64,000 nt of DNA from Escherichia phage vB_Eco_ZCEC15. The position numbers were made by a program, and so were the translations under genes. Where the stretch lies: sequence record PQ871103.1; one strand, written 5' to 3'. This document shows, one piece after another, positions 23,875 through 46,396 of the stretch. The notes beneath the pieces are model-generated. The model was not told the DNA's origin and made no database searches. It worked only from the letters and a program-made list of their open reading frames with translations. Numbering within the stretch: the first letter of the stretch is position 1; every line of letters starts with the position of its first letter.

Positions 23875-24345
23875 TTAATCATGTTTCCACACCCCATCGG
23901 TATTTGACCAAAGTCGCTGATTATCTGATCCTCGCCACAGCTTTTTGGTCGGAAGATTTTTCTCATACTTCCCATCAATAATAACATCAACATATTTAAG
24001 CATTTCTAGTTGTTTAATATCCTCAAACTTATATCCTGTCCACAACCAAATGCTTTTATTTGGATAAAGATTTTTTACTGTTTGAACAATGCAATGAATA
24101 ACATCTCGGTTATCAGGATAGAGAGGGTCTCCTCCAGTTATAGTCAATCCTTCTATATAATCATTATTCAAACATTCAATTAATTGTTCCAGTGTTTCAC
24201 CAGTGAATGGAACGCCATTTCTAGCATTCCATGTTGATTTATTATAACACCCTTCGCATTTATGCAAACAACCTGTAACGAAAAGAACGACCCTGCATCC
24301 AGGGCCATTCACAAAATCACAAGGATAAAATCTATCATAATTCAT
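23875..24345 (-). CDS. nrdG: anaerobic RNR activating enzyme NrdG (radical SAM), 156 aa
   Basis: Cys cluster CLHKCEGC; adjacent to nrdD. Confidence 0.9.
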   Translation of the reverse strand: MNYDRFYPCDFVNGPGCRVVLFVTGCLHKCEGCYNKSTWNARNGVPFTGETLEQLIECLNNDYIEGLTITGGDPLYPDNRDVIHCIVQTVKNLYPNKSIWLWTGYKFEDIKQLEMLKYVDVIIDGKYEKNLPTKKLWRGSDNQRLWSNTDGVWKHD

Positions 24346-26159
24346 TGGTGTTTAACCCTATGCATGATTTCTTTATTTTTTCCAAGATTAAATCCGCGTT
24401 CATTCGGATTTCCCAAATAGCCACAAGTTCTTCTTATTGTGTTCATCTTTTTAGGATCAGTTTCTCCACAAATAGAACAAACAAACCCGTTTTCAGTAGG
24501 AGTCATTTCATGGGTACTTCCGCATGTAAAACATTTATCTACTGGCATATTAACACCAAAATAATCTAAATGTTGTGCAGCATAATCCCATACAGCCTCA
24601 AGACCTTTTAGGTTATTTTTCATATCAGGAAGTTCAACATAAGAAATGTGACCACCTGTCGCAATGAAATGATATGGGGCTTCGCGAGAAATCTTTTCAA
24701 ACGGAGTAATATTTTCTTCTACTGAAACATGGAAACTATTAGTGTACCAGCCTTTATCAGTAACATCCTTTACACTTCCATATTTCTCAGTATCAAGTTT
24801 ACAGAAGCGATAGCACAGGTTTTCAGCAGGAGTAGAATACAAGCTAAAAGCAAAACCGGTTCTTTCAGTCCACTGCTTAAGACGAGCATTCATTTTAGTT
24901 AAAATTTCCTGTCCAATATCACGACCGACAAGAATATTCAATTCGTGAATACCAATGTATCCTAAGGACACTGAACTTCTACCGTTTTTAAATAACTCAA
25001 TTATGTCGTCATCAGGTTTAAGACGAACCCCAAATGCACCTTCTTGGTAAAGAATAGGAGCAACAGTCGCTTTAACTCCTTTTAAGGAACTAATTCTACA
25101 CATCAAAGCTTCAAAACACAAATCCATTCGTTCATTGAACAATTCAGCAAATTTCTGTTCATTGAACTGTGTTCCAATATAAGAATCTAACGCAATGCGA
25201 GGAAGATTCAGTGTTACAACGCCAAGATTATTACGTCCATCAAGAATTTCATTACCAGTCGAATCTTTCCATACGCTCAAGAAACTACGGCAACCCATTG
25301 GAGAAACAGGAATAGATGAGCCGGTGATAACTTTATTGTTCTTAGCTGAAATAATATCAGGATACATTCTTTTGCTTGCACACTCTAAAGCAAGCTGCTT
25401 AATATCATAGTTCGGATCGTCCTTATAAAGATTAACACCTTCTTCAACGAACATAACAAGTTTAGGGAAAATAGGAGTTATCCCATCACGGCCAAGGCCT
25501 TTAATACGATTTTTCAGAATTGCTTTCTGAATCATTCGTTCAGTCCAGTCAGTTCCCGTACCAAATGTAATTGTTACAAAAGGCGTTTGTCCGTTTGAAC
25601 TAAAGAGAGTATTTACTTCATATTCATAAGCTTGGAATGCATCGTATACGTCTTTTTCTGTTTTAGATTGGGCATAATTCAATGCATCGGCGATTTGCCA
25701 TTTTTCTGCATCCTCAATATGTTTTGCATAGGTGCGTTTAACATATGGAGAAAGTACTTTATCTACATTCGCAAAAGTCGTTCCGCCATATTGATGAGAA
25801 GCAACCTGTGCAGTAATTTGTGCCATAATTGCAGTAGCAACGCCGATTGATTTAGGAGTTTCAATCTGCGCATTACCGAGCTTAAATCCGTTCTCAAGCA
25901 TTCCTTTTAAATCTACTAAACAGCAATTAGTAAATGGAAGAGCAGGGGAATAATCAATATCGTGGAAATGGATAATTCCGCTTTCATGCGCTTTCATAAT
26001 AAAAGACGGGACCATATTTTTGGCAATGTGTTTAGACACAATACCAGCCATAAGGTCCCGTTGAGTTGGAAAAACACGAGAATCTTTATTAGCATTCTCG
26101 TTCAAAAGGTCTTTATTAGTTTTATGAATCAATCCTTCAATTTCTTTTTCAATCGTCAT
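24342..26159 (-). CDS. nrdD: anaerobic ribonucleoside-triphosphate reductase NrdD, 605 aa, uninterrupted
   Basis: C-terminal glycyl-radical motif RTCGYLG and zinc ribbon; single continuous ORF. Confidence 0.95.
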   Translation of the reverse strand: MTIEKEIEGLIHKTNKDLLNENANKDSRVFPTQRDLMAGIVSKHIAKNMVPSFIMKAHESGIIHFHDIDYSPALPFTNCCLVDLKGMLENGFKLGNAQIETPKSIGVATAIMAQITAQVASHQYGGTTFANVDKVLSPYVKRTYAKHIEDAEKWQIADALNYAQSKTEKDVYDAFQAYEYEVNTLFSSNGQTPFVTITFGTGTDWTERMIQKAILKNRIKGLGRDGITPIFPKLVMFVEEGVNLYKDDPNYDIKQLALECASKRMYPDIISAKNNKVITGSSIPVSPMGCRSFLSVWKDSTGNEILDGRNNLGVVTLNLPRIALDSYIGTQFNEQKFAELFNERMDLCFEALMCRISSLKGVKATVAPILYQEGAFGVRLKPDDDIIELFKNGRSSVSLGYIGIHELNILVGRDIGQEILTKMNARLKQWTERTGFAFSLYSTPAENLCYRFCKLDTEKYGSVKDVTDKGWYTNSFHVSVEENITPFEKISREAPYHFIATGGHISYVELPDMKNNLKGLEAVWDYAAQHLDYFGVNMPVDKCFTCGSTHEMTPTENGFVCSICGETDPKKMNTIRRTCGYLGNPNERGFNLGKNKEIMHRVKHQ

Positions 26160-41730: not shown

Positions 41731-41918
41731 TATTCTTCTACGTGTTGTTTACGACCTTTCTTATCAATAAAGGTATATTCAACGAATGTTCCAATATAGT
41801 CTTTATCTACACCATGTGGACTATTAATTGGGCATTTAGTACGGCAAATGCGTTCCCATTGACGAATAATTTCCACTTTGTTTTTAGGATCAAACGGATG
41901 CGGGTAATGTACTTTCAT
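41706..41918 (-). CDS. hypothetical protein, 70 aa
   Basis: ORF track; GGTGGA SD upstream. Confidence 0.5.
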   Translation of the reverse strand: MKVHYPHPFDPKNKVEIIRQWERICRTKCPINSPHGVDKDYIGTFVEYTFIDKKGRKQHVEEYCLKVTWL

Positions 41919-42369
41919 AATCCACCACTATTAAATCAATATCAGGAGTAAACATGTCGATTAATTTAGAAACCTTATCCCAATCGCCGCCAGCAATACC
42001 GCAACCTATACGTGGAATGTAAATTACTGGTTTAAACAAAAGGGTTTCTGCCTGTAGATTTAATTCTATCATGCAGTTTACTAAAGCACCATAATCAAGA
42101 TTAGGACCCGGTTCGTATTGTGTATACAGGTTATAGCATATACCAAATCCCGTAGGACTATGTTTAAAAACAATAGACATATCGCCTAATTTATCACGAG
42201 AACCGTACTCGGTAGTGGTTTTATCTATTTCTAAAATTTTGGGATAGGCTCTTGCTAATTGACCCGCTACGCCAGAGCCCATTGTGTGGAAGCAATTGCA
42301 CCCGTGCGCAATAATATTACCTTGAAGAAATAGGGCGACAATATCGCCCTTGATATATTTTACAATCAT
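41890..42369 (-). CDS. macro-domain protein, 159 aa (tk.4 position)
   Basis: Motifs IAHGCNCF and GCGIAGG resemble macro-domain ADP-ribose-binding loops. Confidence 0.6.
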   Translation of the reverse strand: MIVKYIKGDIVALFLQGNIIAHGCNCFHTMGSGVAGQLARAYPKILEIDKTTTEYGSRDKLGDMSIVFKHSPTGFGICYNLYTQYEPGPNLDYGALVNCMIELNLQAETLLFKPVIYIPRIGCGIAGGDWDKVSKLIDMFTPDIDLIVVDYESTLPASV

Positions 42370-43779: not shown

Positions 43780-44100
43780 TTATTCTTTAAATCTAATCAA
43801 TTTATTCATAGACTTTGAAACTTCTGCACGGACCTCATGTAGGTTTTTAAGCTGTTCAAGACGCTGCTCATAGTAAGCAATTTCATCTTCTTCGAGACAG
43901 TCCTGTGAATCTTCTTTAAGATAACGTGCATAGTCCTGGAAAGCTTTACGGACTACTTCTTGGAAGTCATCAAGACTTTGAATTTTCTTAGGAGCAACAG
44001 ATACACGACGAGGGGCAGTATAATACTCATAACCAAACCCTGCGCTTAATTGAGCCATTAATATTTTTCCTCTGGTTGGAACACAGCACGACAAGCCCAC
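43780..44100 (-). CDS. hypothetical protein, 106 aa (vs.3 position)
   Basis: ORF track. Confidence 0.55.
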
Positions 44101-44360
44101 ATACTAGCTTCTTTGAGTTTCGTTTTAGCAATAGTTAACTGATCGAGGCTTTCAGCATAATTCTTTGCGAATTCGTAGTCTTCACAATTATCTAGTGCTT
44201 CCCAGAATTCATCATATAAAGCGTCAAAGATAAGTCCTAAACGAACTTCAGCGTCTTTGATAGCATTCACTTTATCGATTTTCTCTTCAGTGTGCGGCTT
44301 ATAACCTTTAATATCTTCAATCATATTTGACTTCCTCGCCCGTTCCCAAATCATATTCAA
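44058..44360 (-). CDS. Vs.4-position protein, about 94-100 aa; candidate Acb2-type cyclic-oligonucleotide sponge
   Basis: Position corresponds to T4 vs.4, which is the anti-CBASS protein Acb2; identity not verified by alignment. Confidence 0.5.
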
Positions 44361-44538
44361 CTAAACGAATAGGTTCATAAATGCCATATCCCTGAACAGA
44401 AATTTCTGTCGTAGGATAAATTCCACTAATATCACCCATATTCCACGCTTCATTAAATTGCTGTTCGCCTGAATTACTAAACCATTCTGCGAAAGCATTT
44501 AACACATCTTTAGAACCTTCAATAATTATCTTTGCCAT
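44317..44538 (-). CDS. hypothetical protein, 73 aa (vs.5 position)
   Basis: ORF track. Confidence 0.5.
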   Translation of the reverse strand: MAKIIIEGSKDVLNAFAEWFSNSGEQQFNEAWNMGDISGIYPTTEISVQGYGIYEPIRLVEYDLGTGEEVKYD

Positions 44539-44900
44539 TACAAGCTCTCAGTAAAGGTACGAGCGATAACGTCGCGCTGCTGTTCCGGAGTCAGAGAGTT
44601 AAAGCGAACTGCATAACCGGATACACGGATGGTCAGCTGCGGATATTTTTCCGGATGCTTAACTGCATCTTCCAGAGTTTCACGACGCAGAACGTTAACG
44701 TTCAGGTGTTGACCACCTTCAATTTTAACTGTAGGTTGTGGTTCAATTTCAATTTCACGGGTGTGCAAACCGTAGAAAATTTCTGGGTCTACAAAAGAAT
44801 CCTCTTTAAAGGTTTTAGAAACAATAATTCGTGCTTGAATACCATCTTCAAAATAAATAGTACCTTTATGTGTGCCTTCAAGAATTTGATATGCTTTCAT
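44538..44900 (-). CDS. autonomous glycyl-radical cofactor GrcA/YfiD-like protein, 120 aa
   Basis: Glycyl-radical motif RVSGYAVRF; C-terminal half essentially identical to E. coli GrcA as recalled. Confidence 0.85.
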
Positions 44901-44906
44901 ATAACC

Positions 44907-45287
44907 TCAATTAGAAAATAAATTTATCCAAGATTGTTCTTTAATTAAAAATGGCTCAGAATCGTATGCCATTAAACTTTGGGTGATTAGTCCTTTAAAA
45001 GGTCCATCAATAAATTCCATGGTAAAATATGGAATTTTATTCATTAATCTTGCATTAGGAGCAGTACACAAAACTCTGCATCCTTTGAATACACCTTTTT
45101 GCAATTTGTATTGCTTAGGATAAAATTCGCTCAAGACGTTGTTATTTGCCAAAATTTCAAAATGATTCACCAATTTATTTTTAATAGTTTTTGGCGAAAA
45201 ATAAAGATATTCGAAAAGCTGTGTGTCTGTCATCATTGCATTCCGATTACGAAAAACTGCGGACGAGTAATACCACCAATGCAACAT
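44907..45287 (-). CDS. hypothetical protein, 126 aa (vs.7 position)
   Basis: ORF track. Confidence 0.55.
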   Translation of the reverse strand: MLHWWYYSSAVFRNRNAMMTDTQLFEYLYFSPKTIKNKLVNHFEILANNNVLSEFYPKQYKLQKGVFKGCRVLCTAPNARLMNKIPYFTMEFIDGPFKGLITQSLMAYDSEPFLIKEQSWINLFSN

Positions 45288-45823
45288 TTACTATTACAGC
45301 AGTGTTGCACAGTTTCAATATGAATATCGTAAATTTTATCCATATCAGGAGATTTAACAGGCTCATCGATTATATACAAAATTCGCGAAAGAGATAAACC
45401 TCTGAACTTGCTTCCTTTATTACCGATAAAACTACGGACAGAATCAGTAAATAAACGGAATCGAATATCATCGCTAGAATAACGAGAAAATTCTTTTTTA
45501 ATGTGGTCCGCAGAAATTTTAGCGTAAGATGAAGTATTAGAAAGAACAATAACTGTTCCACCGTCATACAACCAATTAGCAGCAAAGTTAGTCACAGCAA
45601 TTGATTTACCGGATTGACGTCCACCATCTAGTCGAAGTGTGCAGTATTCTTTAAATAAATGTGGCGAATCAGGTACATAAAATCCACTATTACAAATTTC
45701 TTCTACTCTAGCATCAGAATGGTGTGTAAAAGCATTCATCAGGGATAGATAAGGACCAGTTAAAAATGTTCTCATTTTGTTATCTCTAAATTTGGGCCAT
45801 TCCATGGCGCATGAATTTTCCAT
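45233..45823 (-). CDS. P-loop-containing hypothetical protein, 196 aa (vs.8 position)
   Basis: GGRQSGKS Walker-A-like motif. Confidence 0.55.
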   Translation of the reverse strand: MENSCAMEWPKFRDNKMRTFLTGPYLSLMNAFTHHSDARVEEICNSGFYVPDSPHLFKEYCTLRLDGGRQSGKSIAVTNFAANWLYDGGTVIVLSNTSSYAKISADHIKKEFSRYSSDDIRFRLFTDSVRSFIGNKGSKFRGLSLSRILYIIDEPVKSPDMDKIYDIHIETVQHCCNSKCCIGGITRPQFFVIGMQ

Positions 45824-46337: not shown

Positions 46338-46351
46338 TTTATCCCTCCAAG

Positions 46352-46390
46352 CAATTGTGAATATACTATCACAATTCTAGGAGAAAGTAA
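46352..46390 (-). promoter_or_regulatory. early promoter with dyad ATTGTGA/TCACAAT flanking the -10 region, upstream of denV
   Basis: GTTTAC -35, inverted repeat around -10, GGAGGG SD before denV ATG. Confidence 0.45.
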
Positions 46391-46396
46391 ACAACT

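Follow-up and report, generated by a model that had tools for sequence, protein, structure and literature searches.

The vs.6 gene of a T4-like phage, a probable glycyl-radical spare part with a 3' half apparently overwritten from Escherichia coli grcA

The gene vs.6 of the T4-like phage studied here very probably encodes an autonomous glycyl-radical 'spare part' of ~14 kDa for host pyruvate formate-lyase (PFL) cleaved by oxygen, its 3' half having been overwritten from the host gene grcA. The comparisons described below, made over a 64-kb stretch of DNA (the window), show that vs.6 is a mosaic in which only the 3' 185 nt are recent E. coli DNA. The gene, its family and its biochemical function are already known from T4 vs.6/Y06I, and as to function nothing new is added here: this is the textbook T4 phage repair part for an oxygen-sensitive host enzyme. 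The added value is evolutionary and modest, in that the 3' part of vs.6 is the sole stretch of the 64 kb that a strictly lytic, host-DNA-degrading phage has in common with the E. coli chromosome. The features on which the analysis rests are as follows.

44538..44900, minus strand: vs.6 coding sequence (T4 Y06I orthologue), 120 aa plus TAA stop, ATG start, from the ORF list
44723..44900, minus strand: 5' half of vs.6, nt 1-178, aa 1-60; GC3 0.17, no E. coli DNA match
44538..44722, minus strand: host-derived 3' segment, ORF nt 179-363, aa 61-120, radical domain; from E. coli-type sequence and codon usage
44548..44722, minus strand: 175-nt exact match to grcA of E. coli SK1144 and other strains, ORF nt 179-353
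44536..44548, minus strand: 3' junction with two differences from the E. coli allele, nt 354 A>G (44547) and nt 358 C>T (44543)
44601..44627, minus strand: glycyl-radical motif RVSGYAVRF, aa 92-100; from the sequence and alignment to GrcA and PflB

Identity and genomic context of vs.6

The window is that of a Tequatrovirus, a T4-like phage. The 14 kb surrounding vs.6 match hundreds of Tequatrovirus genomes at ~95-97%, and the gene order denV-vs.8-vs.7-vs.6-vs.5-vs.4-vs.3-regB agrees with that of T4 and of Yersinia phage fPS-90, vs.6 being flanked by vs.7 and vs.5 within the denV-regB interval, as in T4. The TAA stop of vs.6 overlaps the ATG of vs.5 (TAATG), whose ORF spans 44317-44538. At the DNA level vs.6 is 100% identical to g122c of fPS-90 and 97.5% identical to vs.6 of T4, from which it differs at 9 nt. 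The protein shares 118 of its 120 residues (98% identity) with T4 Vs.6/Y06I (NP_049730), which is annotated as 'autonomous glycyl radical cofactor GrcA' and has the same length of 120 aa. T4 has A for T47 and H for R73, and R73 is the residue found in E. coli. The T4 gene also shares with that of the window its place between vs.7 and vs.5 downstream of denV, its mosaic structure and its junction. Vs.6 matches PHROG 1209 over its full length (aa 1-120, 1.4e-62). An antisense ORF of 129 aa (44532-44921, plus strand) was taken as a shadow of the coding strand; nothing supports it.

The glycyl-radical domain

The first-pass annotation of this DNA had proposed a GrcA/YfiD-type glycyl-radical cofactor gene, whose product would resemble E. 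coli GrcA over the C-terminal ~60 residues, including RVSGYAVRF, and diverge from it in the N-terminus. Both parts of the description were borne out. The last 60 residues of the window protein (61-120, ending TFTESL) are identical, 60 out of 60, to residues 68-127 of E. coli K-12 GrcA, the K-12-type reference being taken from a RefSeq genome, and the radical glycine is present as G95, with its codon at 44616-44618 on the minus strand. The Pfam domain Gly_radical (PF01228) was found at aa 61-101 with an E-value of 2.6e-18, which together with the orthology to T4 Y06I at 98% aa identity places the gene in the proposed family. The motif lies near the C-terminus, within the Gly_radical domain, and follows the RVxG[FWY] pattern of GrcA/YfiD, and the protein, like GrcA, is small (~14 kDa) and standalone, with a radical domain and no catalytic barrel. 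As in GrcA, this C-terminal domain duplicates the C-terminus of PFL: 49 of 63 residues (78%) are identical to E. coli PflB 697-759. The best matches in the PDB, found with phmmer, are YfiD (6owr, 8.4e-42) and PflB 697-759 (4.9e-26). The best NCBIfam match is the GrcA equivalog TIGR04365 (InterPro IPR011140), over aa 20-120; its 153.4 bits fall below the equivalog cut-off of 170 because the N-terminus is divergent.

E. coli GrcA (YfiD, PDB 6OWR) and Vs.6 are both standalone proteins of ~14 kDa in which a disordered N-terminal region precedes the glycyl-radical domain, and over the 60 identical residues their DNA is 98.4-98.9% identical. The N-terminal 60 aa, in contrast, align poorly with E. 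coli GrcA: this half shows ~27% identity, is 7 residues shorter in the phage and has no similarity at the DNA level. Unlike grcA, vs.6 is phage-encoded, has an AT-rich 5' half and stays under the NCBIfam cut-off. With the C-terminal radical domain of PflB (697-759), Vs.6 has the fold element and the RVSGYAVRF motif in common, whereas PflB is an enzyme of 760 aa and Vs.6 supplies the radical domain only, without the active-site cysteines. Over the 3' 60 codons dN is 0, both against E. coli and against Mosigvirus, and the radical domain of Vs.6 is thus of host type, unaltered and held under strict purifying selection.

Origin of the 3' segment

ORF nt 179-363 of vs.6 is 98.4-98.9% identical to grcA in every one of 5,426 complete E. 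coli genomes (5,426/5,426), a likeness well in excess of what chance would give. The interior 172 nt are at least 99% identical in 5,156 of these 5,426 and 100% identical in some. Counted from nt 179 (window 44722) through the stop codon, vs.6 departs from K-12 grcA at 3 positions and from that of SK1144 at 2. In the pairwise DNA alignment of vs.6 with E. coli grcA the junction at nt 179 is sharp, and the sequences upstream of it are essentially unrelated. When the whole 64-kb window was compared by megablast with the 5,426 complete E. coli genomes, no match was found except 44534-44722.

The composition of the gene changes with its sequence. GC content is 0.48 in the 3' segment and 0.27-0.37 in its flanks. 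The comparison of codon usage with neighbouring phage genes, which had been suggested as a check on host origin, sets the 3' half apart: GC3 is 0.45 there, equal to that of E. coli grcA, against 0.17 in the 5' half and 0.24-0.34 in the neighbouring phage genes.

The donor was sought among 80 bacterial grcA genes, in a scan with one genome per species. The 3' 180 nt of the phage gene are nearest to E. coli (98.3%) and to a cryptic Escherichia species (97.8%), followed by Citrobacter amalonaticus (91.7%). The dS between the 3' segment and E. coli is 0.07, with all 3 differences synonymous; over the same codons it is 0.40 between E. coli and Citrobacter amalonaticus and ~1.1 between E. coli and Salmonella. 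These nearest-match identities and dS values point to Escherichia as the donor, within or next to the allelic diversity of present-day E. coli. Transfer ran from host to phage, as the composition of the segment is that of the host and the bacterial grcA genes group as the bacteria themselves do. Dating by alignment with E. coli grcA and T4 Y06I had been proposed at the outset; against E. coli grcA the 3' segment proves recent (dS 0.07). The earlier description of the whole gene as host-derived is accordingly narrowed: it holds for the 3' 185 nt, nearest to E. coli, and not for the 5' half, which belongs to an old phage lineage.

The changes at nt 354 and 358 are the only differences from the SK1144-type allele of E. 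coli, and they lie 6-10 nt upstream of the ATG of vs.5. Changing GAAAG to GAGAG, they probably tune the ribosome-binding site of vs.5. A search of the vs.6 segment against Rfam gave no structured RNA, and the only hairpin in a terminator scan at vs.6 is on the antisense strand and at chance level.

Lineage of the 5' half

Searched against the 5,426 E. coli genomes, the 5' 178 nt of vs.6 have no DNA match at a cut-off as loose as E<=10, and the N-terminal 60 aa searched alone have no NCBIfam HMM match, in line with the divergence expected from the first inspection. The relationship emerges when profiles are compared. A profile of phage N-termini, built from T4-like, T5-like and RaK2-like jumbo phages, matches a profile of bacterial GrcA N-termini with 98.3% probability (E 2.4e-14, 27% identity). 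This homology rules out an N-terminal half unrelated to GrcA, that is, foreign DNA fused to a host fragment. The gene vs.6 is thus a full-length GrcA homologue of an old phage-specific lineage (PHROG 1209), the 3' half of which appears to have been overwritten in the T-even phages of E. coli.

Single or repeated transfer

Homogenisation was tested on the vs.6 genes of 12 Tequatrovirus and 5 Mosigvirus phages. Among these 17 phages, divergence in the 5' half (nt 1-178) is 11.3% between genera and 2-3% within genera; in the interior (nt 179-350) it is 1.8% between and 1.6% within; and in the last 13 nt of vs.6 it rises to 19.9% between genera and 0-11% within them, with genus-specific bases at nt 358 and 360. 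Between the window and Mosigvirus vs.6, dS falls from 0.45 in the 5' half to 0.07-0.12 in the 3' half; Fisher tests of the two halves give p=0.011 with synonymous counts and p=1.4e-4 to 1.5e-3 with raw differences. Along 3.3 kb compared with Mosigvirus, the vs.6 segment forms a peak of 97-100% identity, flanked by sequence of 50-90%.

Repeated conversion by the host gene predicts a homogenised tract that ends where homology to the host gene ends, with lineage-specific edges. The interior consists of alleles living in E. coli, its edges are lineage-specific and it shows no divergence between genera, which makes it look like the product of recurrent host-to-phage gene conversion. The phage variants G192, C219 and A282 coincide with variants among just four E. 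coli alleles. One of the Tequatrovirus and Mosigvirus variant interiors, L095, has no exact E. coli allele, its best match being 98.8%. We propose, with the chances evenly balanced, that T-even phages repeatedly replace nt 179 to ~350 of vs.6 by homologous recombination with the grcA of the infected cell, so that the domain would not drift from recognition by PflA and PflB.

T-even phages recombine freely with one another. The segment could have entered one T-even ancestor in a single transfer and then been passed between Tequatrovirus and Mosigvirus as these phages recombined, without repeated conversion by the host, a history to which we assign a tentative place, somewhat short of an even chance. 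In addition to such free exchange, two substitutions specific to phages, at nt 354 and nt 357, are common to both genera and speak for it, as does a 5' junction at nt 179 that is the same in all phages examined. However, the homogenised tract ends at the limits of host-gene homology, leaving genus-specific differences in the 5' half and in the final 13 nt, where recombination among phages should have brought flanking sequence with it. Also against a single transfer, 5 of the 17 phages, drawn from both genera, have the common E. coli allele as their interior, and the variant A282 of one phage allele (L096) is shared by a minority E. coli allele of ~485 genomes, from which that phage allele is one mismatch away. 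A full-text search of the literature outside the primary T4 papers gave no description of the vs.6 mosaic at the nucleotide level.

If confirmed, recurrent conversion of vs.6 by grcA would be a clean and datable case of a lytic phage matching an auxiliary metabolic gene to its host via recombination and not via selection of point mutations. The segment would also be a natural marker of the host species recently used by a T-even lineage. Cyanophage psbA and other auxiliary metabolic genes of phages exchange segments with host genes. Like vs.6, psbA-type genes of cyanophages combine a lytic phage, a copy of a host metabolic gene and an intragenic mosaic with the host. In contrast to psbA, the donor segment in vs.6 is only 185 nt long and appears to fall within the allelic diversity of present-day E. 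coli, and the recipient is a much older, phage-specific paralogue.

Function and proposed mechanism

According to the account of Wagner et al. 2001 given in PMC8683613, E. coli YfiD and T4 Y06I are 'spare part' proteins of ~14 kDa, which receive their radical from the PFL-activating enzyme. In the same account, which credits Knappe and co-workers, the two proteins restore the activity of oxygen-cleaved pyruvate formate-lyase, and the reaction steps of T4 Y06I are known in vitro. No spare-part protein other than YfiD and Y06I has so far been validated (Andorfer et al. 2021, PMC8683613). Residues 1-60 of YfiD are disordered and matter for installation of the radical, and its C-terminus duplicates that of PFL (PMC8683613 and its predecessor). 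The rescue of oxygen-damaged PFL, put forward in the first-pass annotation, is supported by analogy with T4 Y06I, for which the activity is reported in the account cited (PMC8683613); the window protein would be expected to act likewise, and differs from that of T4 by two residues (T47A and R73H).

The following sequence of events can be proposed. First, the phage genome would express vs.6 together with its closely spaced neighbours on the same strand, in the block denV-vs.8-vs.7-vs.6-vs.5-vs.4-vs.3. By the literature on the T4 orthologue, host PflA, the radical-SAM pyruvate formate-lyase activase, would then put a radical on G95, and aa 61-120 would dock on host PflB cleaved by oxygen at G734, replacing the lost radical domain, so that conversion of pyruvate to acetyl-CoA and formate could resume. 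The likely benefit to the phage is that fermentative energy and acetyl-CoA would be kept up in a micro-oxic gut, and it would arise as the infected cell, its own expression shut off, makes no new GrcA or PflB. Overwriting of the 3' half by homologous recombination with chromosomal grcA of E. coli, probably more than once, would keep the radical domain of Vs.6 compatible with the PflA and PflB of the host.

The literature searched reports no in vivo phenotype for vs.6. A promoter scan around vs.6 returned no more sites than in shuffled controls, and no dedicated promoter. In the record of fPS-90, early promoters are predicted ahead of both denV and regB. Because the scan was at chance level, the timing of vs.6 expression is taken from the annotations of T4 and fPS-90.

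The phage's own anaerobic ribonucleotide reductase, NrdD, had been named as a second possible target, Vs.6 then being a spare radical domain that is activated by phage NrdG and keeps dNTP synthesis going after oxygen cleavage. The window does encode NrdD (24342-26159) and NrdG (23875-24345), and in Aeromonas phage Ah1 nrdG and nrdC immediately flank the vs.6 homologue. An early comparative paper (PMC1524935) speculated that the gene takes part in nucleotide metabolism, and spare parts for other glycyl-radical enzymes are considered conceivable (PMC8683613). The sequence of Vs.6 nonetheless runs against this target, which we regard as highly improbable. Similarity to the C-terminus of class III ribonucleotide reductase, the mark of an NrdD-type glycyl-radical domain, is absent: BLASTP of Vs.6 against the NrdD of the window gives E=2.6, which is not significant, and the radical site is left unaligned. 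The domain is instead of PFL type, by the agreement with PflB 697-759 (49/63) and with host GrcA (60/60) described above. Moreover, vs.6 lies 18 kb away from nrdD and nrdG in the window, and the T4 protein, in the account of PMC8683613, acts with PFL and PFL-AE. On sequence, NrdD is rejected as the target in the window; in other phages such a role stays conceivable, given the place of the homologue beside nrdG in Ah1.

Vs.6 might also be a decoy or modulator, a mimic of the host domain that sequesters PflA or binds intact PflB and thereby redirects or shuts down host fermentation. Such a role would suit a C-terminal domain that mimics the host perfectly, joined to a divergent N-terminus whose YfiD counterpart controls when activation occurs, and it would suit the company of accessory genes for host manipulation and counter-defence, e.g., the homologues of vs.4 (Acb2/Tad1) and tk.4 (macro domain). 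However, T4 Y06I is reported to reconstitute PFL activity and not to inhibit it, in the account given in PMC8683613, and the catalytic motif is conserved exactly, with dN=0, as suits a functional carrier of the radical. We see very little room for a decoy, and retain repair of PFL as the very probable function of Vs.6.

Homologues in other phages and genomes

The vs.6 gene was found in 1,514 phage records, in 958 of them at full length, with ~650 Tequatrovirus and Mosigvirus genomes among the matches at >=90% identity, and the GrcA-like phage lineage is also present in IMG/VR contigs of many sizes. The other phages compared were T4-like phages of Klebsiella, Citrobacter, Enterobacter, Cronobacter and Aeromonas, T5-like phages and jumbo phages. 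The C-terminus of the protein is conserved in these groups; matching to a host at the DNA level was not found in them, nucleotide identity to any of the 80 bacterial grcA genes, a sample that leaves K. pneumoniae grcA outside, being only 68-89%. The residue signature of the phage GrcA-like proteins nevertheless tracks the host. GrcA-like proteins of Klebsiella phages carry ETLLDAVEHPEKY, which is the same in the GrcA of Klebsiella, Raoultella and Salmonella, and an NPDKY variant occurs in contigs whose nearest bacterial grcA is that of Haemophilus. Transfers of a slower pace or greater age, following a like logic, may explain the host residue signatures in phages whose hosts are Klebsiella or, probably, Pasteurellaceae; together with the repeated conversion proposed for T-even phages, this forms one joint reading, to which we attach an evenly divided confidence.

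In Aeromonas phage Ah1 (L092:197-580) the homologue sits between nrdG and nrdC/nrdH, in a cluster for anaerobic and redoxin-linked nucleotide reduction, a position different from that in T4-type phages of enterobacteria. T5-like phages generally carry a GrcA-like gene, with the phage-type N-terminal start MKAYQ; in Salmonella phage phB7 (Tequintavirus; L090 ~220-590) it is a 123-aa ORF (MKAYQNLKSG...RVSGYAVRF...) beside tRNA genes, unannotated in the GenBank record. Jumbo phages (L117, L118 and L120, IMG/VR contigs of 345-357 kb) have a phage-type GrcA homologue with T4-like N-termini (IKAIQILRGEHEGTI...ARVIVSKTLEED).

Several of the IMG/VR contigs L161-L171, labelled viral, have long ORFs (to >600 aa in the locus) ending in the PflB/TdcE type, which may be full-length phage PFL genes or may come from bacterial DNA next to prophages. 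A profile of this PflB/TdcE-type kind, with 760 positions, exists as PHROG 21327. Among bacterial replicons, a copy of grcA is carried by plasmid unnamed4 of Klebsiella sp. WOUb02 (L026, 275 kb). The genome of 'Vagococcus sp. WN89Y' (L034) contains a grcA of enterobacterial type with 91% aa identity to E. coli, probably by contamination or mislabelling.

Neighbouring genes

The neighbours of vs.6 include regB (PF10715, 1.4e-68), vs.1 (SLT), a tk.4 homologue, denV, the T4 lysozyme gene e and a Nudix hydrolase. The vs.4 homologue (44058-44360, minus strand), the second gene downstream of vs.6, contains the Acb2/Tad1 hairpin domain of Pfam (PF24729, 5.3e-20); we take its product to be, probably, an anti-CBASS/anti-Thoeris cyclic-nucleotide sponge. 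The tk.4 homologue (41890-42369, minus strand) has a macro domain (PF01661, 1.3e-07), and the T4 annotation is A1pp phosphatase. The vs.8 homologue (45233-45823, minus strand), an ORF of 196 aa, matches its own family, phrog_1488, and weakly phrog_2 (2.2e-05), in the ATPase region of the terminase large subunit. Because the listed ORF of vs.8 overlaps that of vs.7, the true start of vs.7 is probably further downstream. The gap between denV and lysozyme e is only ~60 nt (46338-46396); ipII and ipIII, which are there in T4, are absent in the window and in fPS-90.
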